From positions 1-64,000 of the IMG/VR virus record IMGVR_UViG_3300028833_000141: 64,000 nt of DNA. One strand, given 5' to 3'. This DNA comes from a virus. Its lineage: Duplodnaviria > Caudoviricetes. Each line of letters opens with the position of its first letter. Position 1 is the stretch's first letter. The position numbers and the translations under genes were made by a program. Positions 7,206 through 49,928 of the stretch are shown here, in pieces. The notes under the pieces were generated by a model, which worked only from the letters and a program-made list of their open reading frames with translations, searched no databases and was not told the DNA's origin.

Positions 7206-10200
7206 ATGAGATATAACAATTACCATAAACATGATCATAGCGGTAATCCGTGGATAACAGACACGATCGCTAAAGAAGAAGATTATTGTAAGAGAGCGAA
7301 AGAATTAGGACATACGACTTGCTTTACTGTAAATCATGGCGTTCAGGGCAGAATCTTTGATTGGATGGAGTGCGCCAAGAAATATGATTTGAAGATGATT
7401 TACGGCACAGAAGCATATTATGTTGATGATAGGCAAAAGGAATATCCGGTAATTGATCCTAAAACTAATGATTATAAACGAGATAAAAAAGGTAATATAA
7501 TCACGCAAAAAGATAAAAGCAATAGACATTTAATTATAGTTGCCAGGAATAATGATGGTGTTAAGCAGCTTAATAAGATCATGTCTGAGGCGCATTCAAC
7601 AGGATTCTATTATCGCCCAAGAATAGATAGAAGCTTATTATTCTCTCTTAATCCATCTAATTTCATTATAACGACCGCATGTGTCGCTGGTATATGGAAT
7701 GATAGCGAATTGATTTTAGCGTTACATAATCATTTCAAAGATAATTTATTTCTTGAAGTACAGAATCACAATATTGATATTCAAAAAGAAGCTAATAAAC
7801 AATTACTGACTTTGAATAAGGAAACAGGAATAAAAATTATTCATGCAAATGATAGTCACTATATCTATCCGCAAGATGAACAATATAGAACTTTATATTT
7901 GAAAGGTAAAGGATTCAATTATTCAGATGAAGATGGGATGATTTTAGATTATCCCGACTCTGATGCGATTTTCCAGCGGTATGAACAACAGGGAATACTC
8001 TCTCATGCACAAGTTCAAGAAGCACTCAATAATACTTTGGTCTTTGATGAATGTGAGGAAATTACTTTAATTAATGATGATATTAAACTTCCTGCTATAT
8101 CAGACCACCCAACAGAAGAACTGAGAACAATTATTAATAATAGTTGGAAAAGGGAAAGAATCAATATACCAAAAGAAAAGCACCAAGAATACTTAGATGC
8201 TATCAGGGAGGAAGTAAATATTGTAGAAAAAACTCACATGGAGCAATATTTCTTGATTGATTACCATGTGGTAAAAGATGGACAAGAGAAATATGATGGA
8301 AAGCTGACCAATACAGGAAGAGGATCAGCACCAAGTTTTTATATAACAAAGCTACTTGGCTTAACAGATATTGACAGGATAGCTGCGCCAATCACACTTT
8401 TCCCATCAAGATTTATGTCTATCGAAAGAATCTTAGGAGCAAAATCATTACCGGATATTGACTTAAATACTACAGATAGAGTGCCATTTATTAAAGCTAC
8501 TGAGGATTTATTGGGTGCTGAAAACTGCGCATGGATGGTATCGTGGAAACCATTGCAGAAATCCAATGCGTTCAGACTGTTTTGTAAGAGCAAAGGCTAT
8601 GCATTAAAAGACTATGATCATATTGCAAAAGATTTAGAAAAATATGAAAACGATCCTAAATGGGGAGCAATAATAGAAGAAAGTAAAGTATTTATTGGCG
8701 TTATCGAAAGTGTTTCAGAATCGCCATGTAGCGAATTACTTTACTATAAACCTGTCAATGAAGAACTCGGATTAGTGAGAACGACAGGCGGTGCAATTTG
8801 TTGTCTGCTTGATGGATATAACTGCGACAAATATAAATATCTAAAGAATGATTATTTAACGGTTACAGTTTGGGCGATAATCAGAGATACATGTAGACTT
8901 GCAAATATTCCTATTCCAACAATCGAAGAAATAAATAATCTATTTGACGATAAAACTTTTGAAGTTTACAAAAACGGCTTAACATGCACGATAAATCAAG
9001 CTGATAGTGACTTTGCAACAGGGTTAGTTAGACAATATCAGCCTCAAAGCGTGTCTGAAATGTCTGCATTTGTAGCGATCATAAGACCTGGGTGTGCGAG
9101 TCTGCGTGATGATTTTATTCAAAGAAAACCTTATACAACAGGAATAAAAGAATTAGATGAACTTCTAATCGAAGGAAATCATAGGATGATTTATCAGGAA
9201 TTGATAATGAAATATCTAATTTGGTTAGGGATACCGGAAACTGGTTCATACGATATTATTAAAAAGATTTCTAAAAAGAAATTCAAGGAGGCAGAACTTA
9301 GTAAATTAAAAGCTGAACTGCTACAGGGATGGATTAAACAGGTAGGTACTGAGGATGGTTTTGATGAAACATGGTCTGTAGTACAAGATGCAGCTAAGTA
9401 TTCATTTAACGCTTCACACTCTCTGTCTTATGCTTATGACAGCTTATATGGAGCGTATCTGAAATCACACTATCCATTGGAGTATTATACTGTCGCTTTT
9501 AATTACTATGATAGCGATTCTGATAGAACATCAAAACTTACAAAAGAACTCGGCTATTATGGAATCAAATTAAAATCCTCAAAATTCAGATATTCAAAAG
9601 CGGATTACATGCTTAACCGAGAAGAGAATAGCATATATAAAGGCGTGCAGTCTATTAAAGGATTAAATGCGGAAGTAGGAAATCAATTATATGAATTAAG
9701 AAATAATAAATATGATTCATTTATAGATTTACTATACGATATTAAACAACAAACTACATTACAGAGAGATCAAGTAGAAATATTAATAAAACTTAACTAT
9801 TTTGAAGAATTTGGAGAGATTAATTATCTGTTAAGATTGCAAAAACTATTTCTCAGTATTGCAGGTAAAAAGCAATTAAGTAAAGAAAAGGTTGCAAAAT
9901 TACAATTAAACGAAAAAGATGTATATGTATGTTCTACTAAAGTGGCAGATAAAACTTATATGGGTATAAATGCAGATAAATTACTAAAACTTACTGCAAA
10001 AAATATTAAAGTTAAGAGATTCACGGTAGGAGAAACAATAAAAGCACAGGCTGAATATTTGGGATATATTGAAGTTGTAGATCAGAGATATAGCCGGATG
10101 TTAGCTATAATGGATATTGACCTGACTTATTCGCCAAAACTTACATGTTATTCTTTGAAAAATGGAACGACTATAGAGTGTAAGATAAATAAGCGTATTT

Positions 10201-26600: not shown

Positions 26601-29600
26601 TCAAGTTGACTTCCCATGAGGTTACGGATTCTGCGCCAAAATACATTTTCAGCAGCATTATAGATAAAGCCGGAAGATGGATTTCCTTCTTGCTTATAAT
26701 CTATATCTTCATGTCCGTAAGTCATTGTAAGCTCACCTGAGTTATTACATTCTGTTACTTTTATGACCTATTAAAAAAATAGGCGAGAGAGGTTCTTCCA
26801 AAAGTGTCTTTACACTTGACCTCTCTTCTCGTGTTTCATTATTAAAAGGATTATTTCACGAGTTCAGACTATTGCATCATCCTAAGATGTTCCTTCGCTT
26901 AGTCGTTGTTCCTCCATATATAAGCAATAAAAAACTCATGCTTTGCACGAGATTAAAGATGAATATATGGTTGGAAGGCGTTGTCCGTCCTTTCGGAGTT
27001 TCGCCGTATATCAGAAGGAATTTTTTATACTTGGCACAAATAATCTATGCCAAGTGCCGTGTCAAAGTCATAACCCCATAAGTCGAAACGATAACCGTTA
27101 TTTATCGCTGCTTTGGCATTATTGATAGTATAATTACGAGCATCAGAACCCATTTCGGTAGCTTCGGCTTCTGTGATATAAGTTTTACCGTAGTGCCAGA
27201 ATGTATTCTTAGCTCTGTTATCAATCATTGTGTATCTTTCAGTAAACAGATACCAATAAAGCGGTGATTCAGATATAAACCAATCATCAATTTCTGATAC
27301 AAATTCAGCGTCAGTCGAAGTGATAACCCATTCATACATATCGCGCCATACCTGTTTTGACGCTTCTTGCTGTGCTTCGATCTCCGCACTTGAAATTGTC
27401 TCACCGTCTTTTGTTCCCATATCATATCTAAACTCAAACGAATCATCCCATGCTTCATATAGAGATTGGCGTTTCAGATTGTTCTCATTATTCCATTGTT
27501 CAGAAGTAATAGGGTAAACCATAGAAACACCCTCGTTAGGGTCATAAGTGATTTCATCATTTTCGTCAAGATAAACACCAGTCTGAAACCAACTGTTAGG
27601 AAGTGTATTATCTGATACCTCGACAACAAATTCTGCTAAATCTGTCGGATCATTTACACGAGTGTTATCAGTTTTCTTTGAATCTCCAATATTTCCAATT
27701 CCATAGAAATGCCAGCCTGTATCGGCAAATTCTCTATGAGTAGAAACATCAGGATCACTTTCTTTAATAAAGATAACGCAGTTGCAAAATTCCATTGAGT
27801 TTTTAACAAATGGATTTCGCTTCTGTCCTGGCGTTTTATAAGGAATATAATCATTAAATCTCTTTTGGAGAAGGGCATTATTCGCATTCTCAGAACTTGC
27901 GATATTCACCTTGATATTAAACCAATCATTAGGTACGGATGTACGAGTCAATGCGACTTTACCGCTACCATCTGAATATTGTGTCCCATCGCCAAGCGTA
28001 AGTTCTGTAATATATGTTGAGTCAAGCGGAATCTTACTTACGACTTGATGTTCGCCATCAAAGCCGAAGATAATATCAATATTTCTTCCTGCATAACCGT
28101 ATTCATTTGATGTAGTTCCTTCAATTTGTTATCCTATAAGCTTTTTATCTTATAGTTCTAATAGTTACAATTCCTATTAGTTCAGCATATCTTTTCACCC
28201 TCGTTATAGCGTTAGGTTTGCAGTTCGCTAATCTGCTCAAATCACCCTATATGTGATTGTGCTGCGGACTCGTGGGAAGATTATATTCTGCTATGCAGTT
28301 TCACTTCCTATGCGTTGCGTGTGACTATATTGTTACACATAGCCTTCCACTCTGATTTGCATTTCAGCATCCCAGATTTCTTCCGCAGTAAATATATCTA
28401 TATTTCTATAGATAGTGGGTAAGTTTTTCGCCCAGCATGATAACCATTGACGAATCTCCAATTATCTAAAATAGGATCACCATTTTTATGAATACACTCA
28501 ACATTCGTATATTTAACATAGTCCTTTTTATCGTTAGTAAAATGAGGACAATCGATTTTTATAACTTTCAAATCCGGACAAGCATTAGCAACCGATTCCG
28601 GTGTTAATGTATTATTCTCGTCATAGATTTGATTTCTCTCATATCTTGCAATCATTGTTTCTGCGTCTGGCGCATCAGCAATAAAGTTCTTCAAGATATT
28701 TGAATCGGTCAAAGACGAAGAGTATGCTTTCATTCTATAAATGTATACATCACAATCATCTGAGCCGATAGTGATAGGAACAGGCTGATACTGATAAAGT
28801 CTGTGTGCATCACTATAAAGCATTGGACGAGCAGCAACACCATCCTCGTAACTCATAATATATGATGTCGCATCTTCATTTTCCGTATCAAGCGGATTGA
28901 TATTAAACTCATATTCAATAATATCCTCTTCGCTGTAAGGAGTATAAAGATTATCAGTTGACGAGTACAGATACGCTTCGTGAGCGTTCATCTTTAATCC
29001 AACCTTTACATTATCCTCAGTAGGATAACAAGACAGGAATGTGGTCTGATTATCCCTGACATTCATTGTCTTGAATCTAACCTTAAATTCCGCACCGGAT
29101 TGTTTAGGATCATTAGCAAATAAGTTATAGCTAATATACGCCCTTGTTCCAGCCTTTACGCAGAAATATTGATTTCCGTCAGAATCAAGATTGTAACCAC
29201 CGTTATTCCAATCGAAGTTTTCAGATACAGACATTTTGACATTAGCATTATTAGCATCTTGCCAAAGCCTGTTTGCGCTACTATTAGACATTCCAACAGG
29301 GTTAAAATCAAATTCGAGATTTGCTGTGACAGGGGATATATCGTATCCAAGTTCTGCAACATCAACCTTGATGGTTACTGATGTAGCACCGCAAGTAATT
29401 GTCAATTCATGTAAAGCAATTTCTTCTGACTTGAACGCCCATGTATTAGCGTATGAAGATAATCTCAGAGTATTAACAATTTCACCGTCTACTGATAATG
29501 TAACAGATGGGGTAGTAGTTCTTGGATCAAAAACAACATAAGGAATTGTAACGGTATTATACTGTTTCGCTTCAACTTCACCATAATGATCGTATCTGTA

Positions 29601-38191: not shown

Positions 38192-41100
38192 CTATATTCT
38201 TCTCGTACCACCCGTTCTTACGAAATCTTTTTTGATACGCTCAGTAGTATAGTTATATGATTGCTCTAAGAAATCTTGACTAAACCGTTTAAGTTCTTCG
38301 ACAACAGATCGATCAACATTTCCCTCTATATTGATTAAATTATCATAGTGTTGATTAACACTGGCTGCACCAAATGTACCATTAGCGTTTATAGGCATTC
38401 TGCCTGATGCCATTTGATACAAGCGTTGGGTGAGGGCAGAAGGTACTACTCCGTCACCAGGATTGAAATGTGATATTATGCCGTTCTTAGTTACAAGCAA
38501 TTCACTTCCAGCTTCATTTGATAAACCAACAAGACTACTTCCTACTCTGCGTGTTCCGGATGCAAAGTGGGTTTGAATACCAGAAACACCATAGAAAGCA
38601 AGCAACTTTTCTAAAGATTTTGAAACTAAAGCTGCATTATCTTCTTGAATTGTTTTAGCATCAGCAAGAAGTTGTTTCATATCTTCGAGATTTACACCGA
38701 GTTTTTCCCATTTTTCGTCAAACTCTTCACTGAGAATGTCCTGCATCTCATCAAGGGCATCGGACGATAAATCGAAATAATGATCTCTGCGAGTTTCAGC
38801 TAAATCTTCTTGCGCTTCTACAAGCTGTTCTTGTAGCCTCGCCATAGATGCTTTAGCTTCTGCCGTTCCAATTCCTTCAAGTGCTGCTATCTGTGCAGTC
38901 AACTCTTGAATATCTTTAGTCTTATCTTTTATTGTCTTATCATAATCATAATATGACTTTTTGGCTGATAAAGCCTTATTTCGTGAGTCAACAAGTTTCT
39001 TCAAAGCATCAAGTTCTGCCTGATCAATATCCTTATACATTTCACGAATCTCATTTATATATCCCTTCATATCGGATGCAGAGGATAAGAGATTTTTTTG
39101 TAATTCGGCTTGTTTATCAAAATACTCTTCCTGAGTGTACATGCCTTGTGCATAAAGGTTATTCAGATTCTTAATGTCATTAGCGTAGTTGCCAACTTCA
39201 TCCCTTGTTGCTTCAAACTGCTTTGCTAACAAAGCGACTCTGGTAATACCATAATCTGTAAAGTTATGTTCTCTATCAAACAACATATCATCATCAATCA
39301 AATTAGATAAGCCGTTTAAAGTATCACTAAGCTTTTCTGCTGCTTTGTGCGCACGCTCGAATGAACGCCAATACACATCATCACGCAAAGCATCCCTGAG
39401 TTTATCAATATCTGCCTGTAAAGAATTGACATCCGCTTTATATCCCATGTAAGCGGTTTCCCATTCATCAGCAGTTTTGCCGCCATACACTCTATCGCTT
39501 GAACTTAATGCCTTTTGCCAATCACGATATGCTTGATTTGCTTCACTTTCCAAATCGGCTAACTTAGAAAGGTTAGCATCAATTTGATTTGTATAATCTT
39601 GTTCAGAAGAATCACGACCAAGTTGTTCATTCAAATCAAGAATGGATTCGTAATATTTCTCGATAGAGTCAAGACGAGCGAGTGCTTTGTCAAGAACATC
39701 ATAAGGCAATTGTGCGATTGCATTATTATATTCTTCTTGATCTTTAGCGCACTCTTGAATCTTAGTTCTATAATCAGAGACAGCATTAGTAGCATCTATA
39801 TATTCCTGACTGCTTGTAGTCCAAAGACCTTTGGCTAAATTATCAGCAATTACTTCATTTAATGCACTAATTTCTCTGGTATAAGAATCTTGCAGACGCA
39901 TACTATTACCGATCAATGAACCATAATCATAACTACTTAAAGATAATCCTCTTGTAGTTTTCAAATCTTGCTGTGCTTGCAATAAATCCATATCGGCAGT
40001 AATAGTATTCTGCTCATTAGTAAATTCTTGCTGCACATTCTCAAATTTCTGCCGACCAAGTGCAGCTTGTTCGATCTTAGCTGTTGCTTCGTCAATTTCT
40101 AATTGTGCTTGCGCTTCGTTATATGAAGTCAAAGCCATGTTATAGTTATAACATGCTTGATAGAAAGCCATAGATACATAGCCTTTAGAAACGTATTCGG
40201 CAAGTTTAGTAATTATAGAAGCACTGATTTCTTTCCTGGAATTAACAGCACTTTTTGCAGCTTCGATATATTGTTCAACTGCTTTACGAGTCTTATTATT
40301 ATTTGATAATTTCTTTAATTTGCTCGTAACGCCAGACATATCTGACACTGAACTAATATAAGAATTTACAGAATCACTTAATCTATTAACAAGTTCTCTG
40401 TCATTGTCAACAATAGCAGAGTAGTATGTTGAAGCCTGATCAAGTAAGCTGTTCTTTGCAGTAAACCCTGTTGCTGCATCTGCTTGTTTTGACAAAACAT
40501 CAATTCGGCTGTCTGCTTGATCATTTTGTGCTTCTGTCATATCAAGCATATTTTGGAATATCTCGGCACTTGTTTCAGCATAATTAACCGCAGCTTCAAG
40601 ACGAGTATCTTCTAATATCTTCTGAATATCTTTACTTGTCGTTAAACCTTCATTATATGAAACGAAACTAACATACAAACTTGGATTATATTTTCTGATA
40701 GTTTTAAGAGTACCGGATGCGATTGCGGTTTTTTCTTTTATACAGTTTTGTGCCTTCTTTATAGCATTCCTATATGCTTTAAGCTGTTTCTTTGATAATT
40801 TCTTTCCCTTATACTTCCGCTTTTTAGCATTCTTTGTTTTATACGCTTTTGATGCTTTCTTTCCGGCTGAATTTGCTGCTTTATCTTCTTGTGCTGCAAA
40901 ATCACTTTCAATTGATGTGACGTTTTCATCGTATGCGGATTGCTGTGATAAGAGAAGTTCATTCCTTGCTGCCAATTGACTCATAGCAAATGCGCCTGTA
41001 GCATTTGAACCACTTGTCGCAATTGTCGAGAGAGATTCCGCTAAATCTATTTTAGCATCCCTTTGAGCATCACGAAGGTCTTTAAGACTCTTGATGTAGT

Positions 41101-44100
41101 CATAAATGCTTTCTCTGAGTTCATCAACAGCATCTTTAGCATCTTGCGCTTTGTCATAAAATTCCTGGTAATCCTTTATGACTTCCTGCATCTTTTTGCC
41201 GTAAGACGAAATATTCAGTTTACCATTTGCAACACCTTTACGGATATTCTTTGCAGCTTTTTTGCTGATTAGTTTTCTCTTAACAGCTTGATTCAACACA
41301 GAATTGGCTTTACTTTGATAACGATTAGACGCTATGCTTTCATTTCCGATTTGCGTAAGAGAAGCGGTAATAGCAGACGAATATTGACTTGCAGCTTTGT
41401 CGTAATTGCCACGCTCAATATTTAAGTCCGCACGCTTTGTGAATCTTTCTATCTTTTTGGTCTGGCGTTCGAGGCGTATTTCGATCCAATCAAATAATTT
41501 CTCAAACCAATTTTGGAATTTCTCTAAAGCCTTTCCACCGCCTTTTGCGTAAGCAGTTCCTTCTGCGAGGGCAGAACCATTAGCCATAGTTCTTCCACGA
41601 CCAAGAGCATATCCATTATTTAATAATGAACGAGATTGGAGGTGATTAAATACAATCGCATCTTTTGGCAAATCAACGAATTCTGCGCCTTTTTCGCCAA
41701 CAGTATGCCAAGTTGCATTGTGAGGGTCTACTACGATTTCCTCCATTTATATTTTCGCTGATTCGCTACATCAGCGAGATTGTAAAACAATCCTCATACT
41801 TTCGCATGAGATTAGACTATATCTTTATGTGATATATAATTCACATATTTACCATTTCGGATTACCAATCGCTTGCAATCCTACTCCCTAAAAGGGATAG
41901 TCGTTGAACCTTTTCCTATTCGGAACTTGGCTGCTGATTATCCAATTCATACAGTTTTCAAACTTTCACGATTAGTCATTTTTCATACTTGCGTTGTAGT
42001 CTGTATGACTCTAAGGATGTTCCAGCAATTAGATAAATTTGCTCTATACATTACTGTATAGAGGGGCATACGAAATACCCAATTCGCCCACTAAAGTACG
42101 ACCACCTGCGCCAACGCCCCAATAGCCTCCGGCATATGATGTGCCGTAAGCGTGGGCAGAACCATTTGCTCGATTTCCACCGCCTGATGGTGGGGAATTA
42201 GTTGATACATTCGTCCAATATATGTATCTATATTGATTTGAAACAGATAGAGTGTTGGTATAATTATCTTTCCAGTTTACTATTCCGTTAGCAGTTTGGT
42301 CTGGCATTTTATCATAATTATCTTTCCAGTTTACTGTTCCGTTAGCATTTTGATCTGGAAGTGGATCAACATTCATATCTAATGCAACTGCAAAATCGTT
42401 GTTCTGCAACGCTGATTTAATACTATCAACAGAAGAGGTATCTACTTCTGCATCAATTTCCAATTCCGCAGATTGATCTTGGATTTTCCCTTGAAGTTCT
42501 GCTAATTTAGCATCTGATTCAGATGTATCTGCTCCAACTGAAACTTCTATATCTCTTTGGTTTGAAACTTGATTAAATTCATTTAATAAACTAACAAGTT
42601 CTTTTTGCCCCTTAGATAAGCCTTTTGTGTCTACTTTCAGTATCGCAGGTTTATCAAGTTCTTGTAATTCCGATTCACAATAAGCAATTATTTTATTTGC
42701 GTTTTCAATATCAGAAGTATCAACATCAGGACGAAGCTTCAAATCGTTCATTTGATTGATATTTCTTTCAAGAACTTTTCTATAATCATCGCCTTCGGCT
42801 GTAATAGTTAGGGCAGAACCTATACCAACTTCATCTTTAAATTTACTTAGTTTTTCTAAAGATTTAACAGCATCCTCTGCACCATCTTTCAAATCGCCAT
42901 GAGCGATAGTGTCACCAACATCACTTAATGAGTATTCAAAATCTGAAAGAGATAATCCTGCTTCGGCAAGCTGAGTCTGTAAATCAGACAGTTTTTCTTC
43001 GCCAATGCTTTCGGTAAATTTCTCCATAGAGAAAGATGCTTGATCTGCTTTCGGAACATATTCACTTATGATGTCCGATAAGGCTTGTTGCTTTTGAGCC
43101 GCAACTTCGGTAGCTGTTCCAGAATATAAAACTGCCTCATTGTATTTACGAACAGTATCAACACATCCCTCGTAAACATTTCCGTTAGCATCAAAGAGGG
43201 AGGCGTAATTCTCTTGCATTGTCGCAGCATCTTCCGACATTTTCTGCGTAAGTTCTTGTGATTCTTGTTGGATGCGTTCTAATTCTGCTTTATCATCTTG
43301 ATAAGCCTGTTGTCTTGCATTCCTTGCAAATGGAGAAACATCTGCCATATCTTCCGGAGTATAGCGTTGCATCTTTGTGCTGAGTGCTTCTTCTTGCCTA
43401 TTAAGAGAATTAAGCTGATTTTGTCTTGCACTATACCGATCTATTAAAGATAATGAACCAAATGAATCAGGTTTACTAAGAACCTCATTAGCCGCTGTTG
43501 CTGCACTACGACCTTGAATCTCGGCAAGCCTCTCTTGCAGTTTGATTTGGTTTTCAAGAAGTCTATTTTGCCGTTCAAGATTATTTAATTCTTGTTGTTC
43601 ATTTATAGATAACTTATCTTTATTCTGTAATTCTTTTCTGCGAATATTATTTTCCGAAAGCTCTTTATTTAAAGATTCTAAACTCGATTGAGTTTCATTA
43701 TATGATTTTCTTGAATCTTCGGCTTTCTTTTGCATTTCACCAAAAGAGGTAGTGCAAAGATCAATAAGTGCAATTGTTCCGGCAATTCCGGCAGAAACGC
43801 CAATAAATGATCCTAAAGCTGTAGTAGATAATCCTAAATATTTTGCTAAAGAAGCAAAGGATTTTTCAACACCGCCTAATTTAGCAATCTTTAATATGCC
43901 AGCGATTCCTGCTCCTGTTCCTACAGTTCCAAATAAACCAATCTCTCCTGTGATAGAATCAATAATTCCAAGAATTTGTGTAAGTCCATCAACGACTACA
44001 CCCATATCTTCCCTTGTGAAAAGATTCTGAGCAATGCCTACTCCGGTTTCTCTAAGTGCATTAAGTTTAAATGTGAGGGATTCCGATACGGTTTCCATCT

Positions 44101-47100
44101 CTGCCATAGCTGAACCGGCACTTTCAGACATGGATTTAAGTGATGATTCTACGGCATCAAAATTGTCAAGAATCGCGGAAACGATTTGACCTTGCCGCTT
44201 TCCTGCTAATTTTTCTAATAGTCGAGCTTGTTGTTTGTCAGTAAGATCATCGTATATTTTAGAAATATCTCTAAGTAAATCTACGGTAGATTTATACTCA
44301 GTTTTATTTTTATCAGTAAATAAGGATATGCCTTCCGGATGATCAGCAGTTTTTGTAAGATCGGCTATATCTCCGGAGAGTTGTTCTACACCGCCAATGT
44401 ATTGTTCGGTCTCTTCATCATATCCTCTGATACGCATTGATAATGTTTTCAAAGCTGTCAATCTGTTACTTTCCCATATTCTAATGGTACTGACCATCAT
44501 TTGATGGCGGTTAGTCATTTCTGGCTAACTCCGCAATTTCATGATTAGGTTATAGTTGCGGTTCGGACTGTATCTTCTATGAATGGCTGAACCAACTACA
44601 TTACTGTATTTGGTATTACAGTCTCTACGGATTCTGTATTATTGTATTCATTTTTTATATAGAAGGATTACAATAATACAGTCTTTCCTCGGTCTATGCC
44701 GCCTCCGGCTTTTGACCGATATAGCCATTTTTATTGTCGGCAAGCTGTTTACCGACACTTGCAGCATCCCTTGTGACTTCTGTAGCTGCTGTTCCCAGAG
44801 CTATTGTTTCATCAAGAGTGTTGTTTGCGGCAGCCATAGCTGACGATGATCTGGTTAAAAACTCTACAATGTCTTGATTTGATACTGCTTGTGTGTTCAA
44901 AAAAATCTGTTACTTTCACCTTTAATTGAGGCTACTGACCATATTCTTATATGGCGGTAAGGACGTTAATCCTTACTCTCACGTTTCTTTTTTAATGAGT
45001 TATAGCGTGAGTTCAGACTATATATTCATCCCAAAGAGGGAGGATAACTTCACAATACTTGTTACCAAGTACCGCCTGTAGTCGTTACGGATTCTAAAAA
45101 TTTATCTAATTCTTCCTCTATTTGTTCTGTGTTTTGAGTATAATTTAATCTTAATAATGGAATTTTATTATCATTACAATAATTGTTTTTAATATTATCT
45201 CTTATTACCATTAATTTATAACTCTCTTCTCCACCAAACCATTTAATAGGTTCAAAGTGTTGTTTTCCATCATATTCAATTAAACCAATCACTTGTTCAT
45301 TTTCATCAATTATTGCAAAATCAAATTTCAATTTATATGTGTATCTACAATCAGCAAATGTATATTGTGGAATATGCCTAATATTATGACTATTCATGTA
45401 ATGTTTTATTATTTTCTCTCCTTTTGATGTGATCTTGCAACCACAAGAAGTAGTGGAATTATCATTTATATTAGCTGGCAATGCAACAAATTCTTCATGG
45501 CATATCGGACATTCAAACCACCATAACCATGTTCCATTTTCATTCTTTTTATATGGTGTAATTGCTTTAACCCCACAATCAGAAACAAAACCAGTCCAAT
45601 CTTTTGTACTTGTCTCAGTTATTCTTTCTTTATTATAACAACCGCAAGAAGTCGTATGTCCTGTTTGAACATCATTTTTATTATAAATACCAATTGTTCC
45701 GCAGTCACAACGACATTTAACCTTTGGTCTCTTTTCATTCCATAGCGTTTCTAAAACAAGTAGTCTCCCAAATCTTTGACCGTCAATTTCTTTGCCAAAT
45801 GTTCTTCTCATTACTTCCTTTTTCATACATCCACACGAAGTTAATTCTGTGCTTGCTTTTCTTAATGGATATGCTTGCCTTATCACTTCATTACCACAAT
45901 CACATTCACATAAACAAAAAGTCTTTTTATTTTTATAATTTGGCAACATTTCTTTGACAACTAAATGTCCATATCTATTGCCAACCATATTTATAACACT
46001 AATAAAAAATCACCTCCTTACAAGGGGTGATTAGATAAATTTTTAGTCTTTCCTCGGTCTATGCTGCTCCCAGCGTTTGACCGATATAGTTATCTGCTAA
46101 AATCCATTTCGGATTTCCATACGTTACCGTATGTTTCGGCAACACTTTACCGATTTTGTTAATTTTACTTGCGACTCCATCAAGCGCATCGCTGGCTTCG
46201 ATTTTATAAGCCTTCATTACGGAGATTAATCCGTCATTAGCTTGCTCGATCGTCATGCCAGGAGATATCGATTTGAATACACTCGATACTTCTGACATTG
46301 TTTTGGAATCTTCCAGATTATATCCAAGACGCGACCAATCCGCTGCACCTTGAATAATATCTTTAGTAGTAGTACCAAATTTCTTAGCACTATCATTTGC
46401 TGTAAAATAAAAATCGTTCAACTGCTTTCCTGTAGCTGAACTTGTTTTCTTTAAATCAACGAGAGCATCATCGAGTGCCACAACTTCATTGATTCCTGAT
46501 TTTATCGTTCTTATAGAACCATATATAATTGTCGAAGCACCAACATAATTTGATAGTTTACTGAATGCACTTTTCATTCTTGAACCGAAAGTTACAACAT
46601 TCTTTCCGGCAGCTTTCGATTCTTGACTGATAGTGTTAAATCTTTCGTTAATCCTTTTTAAGTCAGACGAATTGACCTTGCCGCTTTCGCTTAAAGTATT
46701 CAATTCATTTACTAATCTTCTAACTTCTGCACCATATTCTTTAGCAGCCTTAGTGCCGGAGTTTAAGAATTGATTCATCTTGTTTTGAGATGAAGCGATT
46801 TGTGATGCACTCGCAAACTGTTTCATTTCAGCAGAAACACTCGATATTTGATTCTTAGTAGTTGTTAAAAGTGCATCATACTCTCTATACTGATTTACAA
46901 GTTTACGAGAACCATCAATACCATTCGATTCAGTTGTACGCATAGCCGTTGCCATTTGTTGCAACTGATTGATATTAGATTGAATAGTAGTATTTAATGT
47001 ATTGCCAGAATTTGCAATCTTATCATAGTTCGCCTTAACTGATTGTAAATCAGAGTTTAATTTTCCAGTATTGACCGATTTTAATGCTTTGTTGTAATCA

Positions 47101-47348
47101 GAGAGATATTTGCTAACATTATTGCTACGCCAAGAAGAACCGCTTTTTGTAGCCTGTTGCATACCATTCTTTAAACTTTTACCAGCATTACGACCAATAC
47201 TATTGAATTGCTTTTGCAAAGCCGACATATCGACATTGCCGATTTTTACATTTTTTAATACTATCGGTTCTTTTCCGATTGATTGCAGTTGGGAGCTTAT
47301 GCCACTTAAATCTAATGTAGCTTTTACTTTTGCTTCAAACTGAGACAT
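38192..47348 (-). CDS. tape measure protein, spliced: join(47348..46149, 44897..44751, 44458..42077, 41743..38192), 2426 aa
   Basis: TP901-like tape-measure core; splicing restores KIG|NTQAVS, SVG|TALKTLSMRIRG and GELG|EEIVVDPH in frame. Confidence 0.9.
41744..42076 (-). ncRNA. group I intron C (333 nt, no ORF)
   Basis: P1 GGGT/GCCC; P TTGCTGGAA, Q AATCAGCAG; R GTTCAACGACTA; S AAGATATAGTCT; ends ATAAATG. Confidence 0.93.
44459..44750 (-). ncRNA. group I intron D (292 nt, no ORF)
   Basis: P1 TGTCGGT/GCCGACA; P3 AATGGCT/AGCCATT; P7 GAGACTG/CAGTCC; ends AACAGATTG. Confidence 0.92.
44898..46148 (-). mobile_element. group I intron E (1251 nt) with homing endonuclease ORF in the P6 region
   Basis: P1 TCGGT/GCCGA; P10 GTGTT/AACAC; P3 GATAACT/AGTTATC; P7 ACGACTA/TAGTCT; ends in G. 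Confidence 0.92.
45062..45988 (-). CDS. intron-encoded homing endonuclease (Cys-rich repeats + Vsr/EDxHD-like nuclease)
   Basis: Three repeats ending SCGC; C-terminal LKFDF...IEYDGKQH...RDNIKN; last codons overlap the P7 5' strand. Confidence 0.8.
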   Translation of the reverse strand: MVGNRYGHLVVKEMLPNYKNKKTFCLCECDCGNEVIRQAYPLRKASTELTSCGCMKKEVMRRTFGKEIDGQRFGRLLVLETLWNEKRPKVKCRCDCGTIGIYNKNDVQTGHTTSCGCYNKERITETSTKDWTGFVSDCGVKAITPYKKNENGTWLWWFECPICHEEFVALPANINDNSTTSCGCKITSKGEKIIKHYMNSHNIRHIPQYTFADCRYTYKLKFDFAIIDENEQVIGLIEYDGKQHFEPIKWFGGEESYKLMVIRDNIKNNYCNDNKIPLLRLNYTQNTEQIEEELDKFLESVTTTGGTW

Positions 47349-47362
47349 TGATTACCTCCTTT

Positions 47363-48409
47363 CTACAAATCAGTTAGACCGCGCTTTTCTACTTGTTTAA
47401 TGCCATCTTCACCAAAATATTTTTCAAGTTGAGAATCACTTGTTCTATCATCGTAAACTCTGAGCATTTCGCTGCTCGTCCATCCTTGAATGGTTTGAAC
47501 GACCGCCTCAGGTAAATTCTGTTCAAGCAACTGAGTAGTGAAGAAATGTCTTAAAGCATGTAGATAAATTGGTTTACCCATTATATTTGAAAAAGTTCTC
47601 ACCCAAGAGTTAAGCGTGGTAATACCAATATGTTCATCGAGCCATTCTCCATCTTGATATTTCGGAAATAACCAATCAGAAGATATTCCCAATTTCTCAC
47701 GATCTTTCAGCCATAAGTCTAAATACGGTTGAAATGGTTTAGCTAAAACATAAACATCTAATAATTTTCCTCGTGATCCGCGACCTTTTGTAACCATTTT
47801 CTCAGGCGTTTTATATAACGAACCGCCACAAATCAAATTCTCTTCTTGGAAATAAGAAACTTTGAATCTCGTTAATTCGGCTTTTCTTTTACCGCTATAC
47901 ATAGCAAGTGCGACAAGACAAGCCTTTTGATAATCTTTTCTCTCAATCAATTTATCTAAAAGAAGCTGCAAATCTTCCTCTTGAAAAACCGATTTTTCTC
48001 TAACCGCTTCATCCGCAGGAGATTCAATTTTACGGACTATCGGTTTATATCCATCAAATTCATCATCCAAAATGTTTTCTATAAAATTAGAAAGACTACT
48101 CAGTGTAGCTTTAACTGTTCTCGTTCTTCTCGGACTCCAACCCCATTCATTGATGCAATGATTTTGAAATTTTGCTATCTCTCTCTTGCTTAAATCTACA
48201 AAGAATTTGTTTTTGTTATACTCTAAATTCCAACACCAAAATACATGCAGATTTGCACGATATTGTTTTATCGTACTTTTTGCACGATCAACAGATTCTA
48301 AGTATTCTATAAAGTCATTCTCTAATTCTATATTTTCTGGATTTATGTCTTTTAACTTTTCTTCGGTTGTGATTTTATTGTAGACAGTTTTTCTACCATC
48401 TTTATTCAT
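47363..48409 (-). CDS. second tyrosine recombinase, inside the late operon
   Basis: YSGKRKAEL, HALRHFF, QGW...MLRVY; no arm-binding domain. Confidence 0.85.
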   Translation of the reverse strand: MNKDGRKTVYNKITTEEKLKDINPENIELENDFIEYLESVDRAKSTIKQYRANLHVFWCWNLEYNKNKFFVDLSKREIAKFQNHCINEWGWSPRRTRTVKATLSSLSNFIENILDDEFDGYKPIVRKIESPADEAVREKSVFQEEDLQLLLDKLIERKDYQKACLVALAMYSGKRKAELTRFKVSYFQEENLICGGSLYKTPEKMVTKGRGSRGKLLDVYVLAKPFQPYLDLWLKDREKLGISSDWLFPKYQDGEWLDEHIGITTLNSWVRTFSNIMGKPIYLHALRHFFTTQLLEQNLPEAVVQTIQGWTSSEMLRVYDDRTSDSQLEKYFGEDGIKQVEKRGLTDL

Positions 48410-48844: not shown

Positions 48845-49408
48845 TTATTCTCCTTTAGCCATTATCGCTTTAAAGGCTTCTGATTCTGTAAAAGCATCCG
48901 TCACAGCTTTTGCATCATATTTTCCATCCGACACATTCTTTGCAAATTCAAGAAGCTTATCAACTGTCTCTTCATTCATAACATTATTAACAGAACTAAT
49001 CATGTTATCTAAATTACTGACTAATTCTCCAATTTGTCTTGTTGCCTGGCTAATAGCGTAAGTAGGGGAGTTTATTCTGCTATGAATTATTTCCATAGCG
49101 TTTTTGAAGGCATTGGCAAAATCATATTTAATATCACCGTCAAATGTAATGGCTTCATTAAACGCTTCTAAAAATTCTTCATTCGCAAATATCACATCTG
49201 CATCGAAAATATCCGTAATAACTTCCATATCCGAAATAAGATTTTTATTCATAATGCAGCCATTATAAAAAGCTAACATTGTACACATATCTCCGATATG
49301 CGGAGCATAATTCCCAGCCTCATCAAAATAACTATCAACTATTTCATTGACCAAAGAGTAGTATTCTGCAACTGTAAAATAATCTTTATACTCAATCTGT
49401 TTACCCAT
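48845..49408 (-). CDS. hypothetical protein
   Basis: 187-aa ORF coupled to its neighbours. Confidence 0.6.
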   Translation of the reverse strand: MGKQIEYKDYFTVAEYYSLVNEIVDSYFDEAGNYAPHIGDMCTMLAFYNGCIMNKNLISDMEVITDIFDADVIFANEEFLEAFNEAITFDGDIKYDFANAFKNAMEIIHSRINSPTYAISQATRQIGELVSNLDNMISSVNNVMNEETVDKLLEFAKNVSDGKYDAKAVTDAFTESEAFKAIMAKGE

Positions 49409-49928
49409 TCTTTTCCTCCGAAAATTGTGTTAAAAAATATTCAGTATCATATCTATATCTTGTTCTCTTTTTTGTTTGTGGAATAATGAAGTAGGGGATA
49501 TTGTTATCGTCTAAATCTTGTATAGTAAAACTTTTCTTTGTGATTAAAATTAGCATTTTATTAAAAGCTTCTATTGAAATAAAAATAGTAGTTTCAATTG
49601 ATCTAAACTCAATAATAAATCCACATATAATGCCATCATATTTATTCCACTCATTTAATCCATCTATCTGATGTTTATGAATCTTTCCTTTGCTGTCTTT
49701 TTCTCTCTCAAACGAAATAGATTTTTCCTTAACCGTTTTCATCTCTAAAGCGTACAGCTTCATTTCATGAGAATCCCAAAGAATAAAATCAAAAGGGTTC
49801 TTATTGCTGAATCGCAAATTCGCAGATTTGCTAAAGGATTGAGGGGGATCAGGTAATCTATACGCCAAAACATAATCCGGAATAGATTTCACAAAATCAT
49901 CTTCAAATTTTTTTCCTATATTTCGCAT
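49401..49928 (-). CDS. recU: RecU-like Holliday junction resolvase
   Basis: GKKFE, NPFDF, ALEMKT, HQI motifs. Confidence 0.75.
   Translation of the reverse strand: MRNIGKKFEDDFVKSIPDYVLAYRLPDPPQSFSKSANLRFSNKNPFDFILWDSHEMKLYALEMKTVKEKSISFEREKDSKGKIHKHQIDGLNEWNKYDGIICGFIIEFRSIETTIFISIEAFNKMLILITKKSFTIQDLDDNNIPYFIIPQTKKRTRYRYDTEYFLTQFSEEKNG

Follow-up and report, generated by a model that had tools for sequence, protein, structure and literature searches.

Three group I introns in the tail tape measure gene of a predicted SPbeta-like gut siphovirus

The tail tape measure gene described here lies at positions 38192 to 47348 of a 64,000-nucleotide stretch of viral DNA (hereafter the window; positions 1 to 64,000 of IMG/VR record IMGVR_UViG_3300028833_000141), on the minus strand, as do all other features of the window for which positions are given below. 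Its four exons join into one frame of 2426 codons with a single, terminal stop, and comparison with related sequences confirms that the gene is interrupted by three group I introns. We consider it highly likely that this is one tape measure protein (TMP) gene of an SPbeta-like siphovirus of ~150 kb from gut Bacillota, that it has been invaded by three selfish, self-splicing introns, and that these are spliced out constitutively. What is new here is descriptive, namely an intron family that Rfam misses, the two insertion sites that this family prefers, and a branch of it that lacks the P8 helix; the multi-intron TMP gene as such is already known.

One frame across four exons

In the direction of transcription, the gene comprises exon 1 (46149..47348; 1200 nt, amino acids (aa) 1-400), exon 2 (44751..44897; 147 nt, aa 401-449), exon 3 (42077..44458; 2382 nt, aa 450-1243), and exon 4 (38192..41743; 3552 nt including the stop, aa 1244-2426). 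These are separated by intron 1 (44898..46148; 1251 nt), intron 2 (44459..44750; 292 nt), and intron 3 (41744..42076; 333 nt). The lengths of all four exons are multiples of 3, each intron is preceded by an exon ending in GGT and sits in phase 0, and all three introns (3/3) finish with the terminal G (omega G) at borders that were set by protein alignment. The first three exons end in AAAATCGGT, AGTGTCGGT, and AATTGGGT, respectively, and the predicted joints are AAAATCGGT with AACACACAAG, AGTGTCGGT with ACAGCTTTGA, and AATTGGGT with GAGGAAATCG. A preliminary description of this DNA had already placed three phase-0 introns after GGT codons at these positions; in-frame joining and the gap-free alignment of homologues bear this out, and its exon lengths, coordinates, and 2426-aa product are right.

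The joints can be read directly from homologues. When the joined product is compared by BLASTP with its best 30 uninterrupted homologues, the alignment runs without gaps through KIG/NTQA (400/401), SVG/TALK (449/450), and GELG/EEIVV (1243/1244). Relative L003 (58-92% identity) has no insert where intron 1 sits and reads aacaaaatcggtaatacacaagca there, and locus L004, which covers both N-terminal sites, has no interruption from aa 148 to 644. At the intron-3 site, L061 carries a 79%-identical copy of the intron in the same position. In addition, when exon 4 was used to look for longer proteins, more than 100 uninterrupted relatives of 2.1-3.5 thousand aa were recovered, many of them with the PF10145 domain.

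The identity of the gene is indicated by PF10145, by the tape measure PHROG, by its great length, and by its position in the tail module. Exons 1, 3, and 4 each match PHROG 4211 (tape measure), and the PF10145 domain is divided between exon 1 (profile positions 1-85 at aa 318-399) and exon 2 (profile positions ~87-134). The full domain is present in the uninterrupted homologues P0008 and P0015, and residue 1 of the predicted TMP aligns with residue 1 of P0008. Similarly, the stretch of L003 that is equivalent to aa 378-449 corresponds to PF10145 positions 65-134.

A guide-bearing intron family and its sites

Introns 1 and 2 found no match in Rfam even at E ≤ 1, and neither did the related copies in L003. 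This failure of the RF00028 model is a limit of the model's reach and not a structural criterion. We therefore searched viral contigs with a 14-base word from the core of both introns, together with nhmmer profiles, and recovered at least 78 copies in 70 sources (gut-phage contigs and metagenome-assembled genomes (MAGs)). An alignment of 14 compact copies, on which a group I structure was laid by hand, accommodates 12 helices: P1, P2, P3, P4, P5, P6, P6a, P7, P7.1, P8, P9, and P9.1. Of these, P7 is pseudoknotted with P3, and P7.1 is an extra, GNRA-capped hairpin between P7 and the 3' strand of P3. Paired cells make up 96.0% of this structure, compared with 34-37% after the partners have been shifted by 1-3 columns; 49 of the 65 pairs have changed on both sides, and none of 500 shuffles reached the observed values. 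In P7, a G-C pair has switched to A-U in 6 of the 14 copies, without exception. By this conserved and covarying fold, introns 1 and 2 belong to group I and are IA-like in design.

The guide of each copy covaries with the end of the exon in front of it, giving the combinations TCGGT/GCCGA, TAGGT/GCCTA, TGGGT/GCCCA, CTGGT/GCCAG, TGAGT/GCTCA, and TGGAT/GTCCA. We propose that introns 1 and 2 represent an IA-like family specialised in tape measure genes, in which a 5'-GCCN' guide would pair with an exon end NGGU, so that the splice site carries a U.G wobble. That the exons share GGT ends and the introns sit in phase 0 can be explained by this guide, because it pairs with NGGU at conserved glycine codons of PF10145; GGGU is likewise paired with GCCC in the unrelated intron 3. 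The family as such is not bound to phase 0, as a copy in L003 at 377/378 splits its codon as GT/A (phase 2).

Every helix of the family structure is found in intron 1. Its P1 guide GCCGA (46136-46140) pairs with UCGGU, with the U.G wobble at the 5' splice site; the intron also has the P10 guide GTGTT (46141-46145), P2 (46118-46133), P3 (46088-46094 with 45043-45049), and P4/P5 (46054-46084). Further downstream are P7 (45079-45083 with 45016-45020), P7.1 (45052-45076), P8 (45027-45042), P9 (44978-45011), and the terminal G at 44898. The loop of P6 holds an open reading frame (ORF) for a candidate homing endonuclease (45062..45988; 308 aa), the 3' end of which overlaps P6', P7, and P7.1. Its product combines Cys-rich repeats with a C-terminal, DUF2726-like nuclease domain (PF10881, E 1.3e-5) and matches PHROG 559, 374, 9084, and 7140 (HNH, homing or intron-encoded nuclease) at E 2e-41 to 2e-16; a sequence search of the PDB with the same ORF gave nothing significant, only noise.

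Full-length orthologues of this ORF (38-54% identity) occur in the site-400 introns of at least 13 loci, and orthologues were found in site-400 introns only. With its place in the P6 loop and its match to nuclease families, this linkage to one site is what a homing endonuclease gene should display. Compact site-400 introns of ~440 nt (L108, L055, L040, L032, L051, and L139) retain only the last 50-60 codons. The pattern as read from these copies is that of the classic homing cycle, in which invasion is followed by decay of the endonuclease and then by loss, with the compact copies as snapshots of decay. Intron 1 is probably still mobile, since it has kept a candidate endonuclease gene that is linked to site 400/401. 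Upstream of the endonuclease start, a hairpin over the GGAGG motif (46005-46030, within the region 45989-46050), followed by a U run, was considered as a structural element and set aside as not significant (z = -1.24). Such a hairpin might limit translation of the ORF, yet it does not stand out from shuffled sequences, and a terminator scan did not flag it.

Intron 2 carries no ORF and belongs to the same family, without P2 and P8. Its guide GCCGAC (44736-44741) pairs with GUCGGU to form P1, and the remaining helices are P3 (44723-44729 with 44582-44588), P4/P5 (44689-44719), P6a (44634-44681), P7 (44619-44623 with 44566-44570), P7.1 (44591-44614), and P9 (44531-44561), with the terminal G at 44459. 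A single-sequence fold yields the same helices (z = -5.6), and a distant blastn search of cultured phages with intron 2 gave no match. The P8 helix, which is part of the conserved group I core, is present in intron 1 and in intron 3; in intron 2 alone it is replaced by a 4-nt linker (44578-44581), which appears as a 28-column deletion in the alignment. Intron 2 is nonetheless filed as group I because it is homologous to complete members of the family and its other helices are conserved.

The loss of P2 and the reduction of P8 to 4 bases are shared by intron 2, by the 449/450 copy of L116 (L116:7937-8201), and by an ORF-bearing copy at the 449/450 site of L030. We read intron 2 as derived from the lineage at site 449/450, with no ORF and with P2 and P8 lost. 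Among the three P8-less copies there are compensatory changes in P5, P7.1, P9, and P9.1, and the TMP gene of L030 contains the P8-less intron and no sister intron at site 400. For these two reasons the P8-less form seems to work alone, and this sub-lineage may represent a naturally working group I ribozyme. A search of the literature for natural group I introns without P8 found nothing relevant, although that search was poor.

As for the distribution of the family, 35 of the 78 copies sit at 400/401, 18 at 449/450, and 1 at 377/378, and 24 match nowhere in this protein. Similarly, 15 of 20 MAG contigs have a copy in a TMP homologue at one of these sites. Of the ~31 loci that cover both N-terminal sites, only 2, the window and L116, have an intron at each, and the overall distribution is patchy; in L116, the same 147-nt exon lies between the two introns, at 7790-7936. 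Relatives have further introns at 337/338, 343/344, 535/536, and ~541 (L003:6076-7282 and 7903-8650; L116:8460-8882; L064:6452-6970), some of a different intron family and some with a different Cys-rich ORF, and L116 accumulates at least four introns within 573 codons.

A tree of the intron cores separates a clade that is mainly at 449 (intron 2 of the window, L116, and L030) from one that is mainly at 400 (intron 1 of the window, L116, and copy B of L003), with a few switches of site. Introns 1 and 2 appear to be old paralogues and not recent duplicates, because each groups with introns at the same site in other phages. The preliminary description had called the two sister introns; they do belong to one family, with a shared fold and a guide pairing with UCGGU, whereas a recent duplication is contradicted by the same-site grouping.

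For annotation, the family matters in that it sits mostly at two PF10145 sites in many gut-phage contigs and leaves TMP genes in fragments. Gene finders split these genes because the upstream introns escape RF00028. Several database "proteins" (P0019, P0022, P0013, P0036, and P0099) start exactly at 449/450 or at ~541 and are downstream exons that were called separately. In addition, the family offers a natural data set for guides that track their exon, for site-specific endonuclease lineages and their decay, and for a seemingly P8-independent lineage.

Constitutive splicing weighed against exon skipping

We envisage that in late transcripts the three introns would be removed by two transesterifications each, so that the 2426-aa TMP is restored. 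Under this scheme the in-frame exons would be a by-product and not a device, because the landing sites of the introns are set by the guide.

Several points weigh against this account. Splicing itself is something that we infer for this phage, from joints and folds; introns 1 and 2 are not recognised by Rfam; and intron 2, lacking P8, might splice poorly or need help. It is also important to remember that the loci were fetched with a pattern derived from the intron family itself, which biases the copy counts by ascertainment, and that the family tree is a quick FastTree on 234 columns, the support values of which were not inspected.

The weakness of intron 2 could go further than poor splicing. 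If the loss of P2 and the precise replacement of P8 by 4 nt at 44578-44581 had crippled the ribozyme, then either the gene is broken and the phage defective, or a helper is needed, whether the sister intron or a host protein. We regard this as very unlikely, given that the same P8-less form has been kept in L116 and L030, that compensatory change among the three copies points to selection for a functional fold, and that the frame is unbroken on either side of intron 2. As a helper, the sister intron is ruled out by L030, which carries the same P8-less intron and no site-400 intron.

A different question is whether the exons are always joined in order. The preliminary description had proposed that skipping of exon 2 or exon 3 gives in-frame isoforms, and possibly virions of different tail length. 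Some of its premises hold. All exon lengths are divisible by 3 and keep the frame; the 5' exons of introns 1 and 2 both end in TCGGT, and as both guides pair with UCGGU, cross-recognition through P1 is physically possible and exon 1 could in principle serve intron 2 as its 5' exon, so that an exon-2-skipped joint would read AAAATCGGT with ACAGCTTTGA. Precedents are real as well: skipping between similar neighbouring group I introns is on record for Twort orf142 and in 47% of the polymerase transcripts of SIOphi (PMC3073962 and PMC11878797). Even so, we think it extremely unlikely that regulated skipping of exon 2 or exon 3 produces functional TMP isoforms that are 49 or 794 aa shorter, with shorter tails. 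Exon 2 lies inside PF10145, and no other part of the protein is as well conserved (92% identity in L003 vs 58% for the N-terminal part); none of 66 homologues (0/66) lacks exon 2, and there are at most 3 gap positions. Simultaneous occupancy of both sites is rare, as given above, and in L116 one exon end is TGGGT and the other TCGGT, each with a matching guide, so the cross-match is not conserved. In addition, the P10 guide in intron 1 is complementary to exon 2 and not to exon 3, and skipping of exon 3 would need the cooperation of an unrelated ribozyme, as the guide GCCC of intron 3 pairs with only 3 bases of CGGU. Without 49 aa, the length of the tail would differ by only ~2%.

The comparative data thus lean against a selected function for skipping, and a tail-length programme by this route finds no support in them; for tail-length control in general, our analysis adds nothing firm. 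Just as improbable, in our view, is the narrower proposal that the intron-2 ribozyme sometimes takes exon 1, releases a single piece made up of intron 1, exon 2, and intron 2, and yields a TMP shorter by 49 aa that enters virions or modulates assembly. If true, alternative splicing by group I introns would here have a structural read-out.

A more modest form of skipping, in which exon 1 is joined directly to exon 3 in a small fraction of transcripts and the product is defective or neutral, is less easily dismissed, and we rate it as unlikely. P1 would be equally strong with either exon end (5 bp, UCGGU with GCCGA), and the Twort and SIOphi cases are precedents here too. On the other hand, intron 1 is transcribed first, and its guide GUGUU forms a perfect, adjacent 5-bp P10 with AACAC of exon 2, which favours local splicing, and the competing sites are 1.4 kb apart. 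Constitutive splicing of all three introns, in order, is the reading that we retain.

The third intron, the genome, and comparable phages

Intron 3 has another origin. It is a canonical group I intron with a full-length match to RF00028 (95.6 bits, E 2e-24, 41793-42086) and a P1 of GGGU with GCCC; it is unrelated to introns 1 and 2 and belongs to a different, widespread phage lineage. Its insertion point falls within the conserved GELG/xEIVV motif. Relatives of intron 3 were detected by blastn in 249 cultured-phage records, including the split TMP gene of Streptococcus phage Str-PAP-1 (NC_028666). There, an intron-3-like core (77% identity over 146 nt) stands right after the first TMP fragment, two endonuclease genes lie between the fragments, and the fragments are annotated as separate coding sequences.

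The closest parallel in architecture is Vibrio phage ICP1, the TMP gene of which has 4 exons and 3 introns, with splicing validated by RNA-seq and reverse-transcription PCR (Barth et al. 2023, PMC10448857). The same paper names the TMP gene as one that is frequently interrupted, and the endonuclease content of ICP1 varies between isolates. The two cases differ in that ICP1 infects a host of another phylum, carries endonucleases of the HNH-3 family, and bears no sequence relation to the gene described here, for which splicing is predicted. Among TMP genes of Bacillus cereus-group prophages, three intron sites have been described (IVS1, IVS2, and IVS3; Tourasse and Kolsto 2008, PMC2504315). The likeness is considerable, with up to three sites per TMP gene, two related IA2 introns the P1 of which is adapted to each site, a third intron of another class, and a patchy distribution; unlike these, the family reported here matched no record of the B. 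cereus group in the scan of genome contigs. Finally, exon skipping in RNA was reported for Twort orf142, a tail tube gene (Landthaler and Shub 1999, as cited in PMC3073962 and PMC11878797). Twort and SIOphi share with the present case a single phage gene that is interrupted by a number of similar group I introns and includes a short internal exon. The difference is that skipping was seen there in RNA, whereas here it would follow from in silico P1 compatibility, which L116 has not conserved.

The source record is 76.6 kb long and was estimated to be about half complete. Matches of exon 1 include the tape measure protein of the SPbeta group (YomI) and those of other large Bacillota siphoviruses, while a megablast search of cultured phages with the whole gene gave no match. 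Named sources of the protein relatives include Lachnospiraceae and Blautia, and a scan of bacterial genome contigs located members of the intron family in MAGs of Clostridia from gut and rumen. Based on these sources and the MAG matches, the host is probably a gut member of the Bacillota.

On the 3' side, the TMP gene is followed by a minor tail protein gene and a fibre gene, and on its 5' side are genes for a tyrosine recombinase, a Holliday junction resolvase, lysins, structural proteins, and the portal. Tail chaperone genes are the usual occupants of the position just 5' of a tape measure start. In the window, the tyrosine recombinase gene (47363-48409; PF00589 with a PF13495 SAM-like N-terminal domain) ends 14 nt before the TMP start, and the Holliday junction resolvase gene (49401-49928) lies ~1 kb upstream of the recombinase gene. 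Elsewhere in the window, a weak RF00028 match (23.5 bits; 26847-27056, minus strand) falls between two large fibre-gene ORFs.

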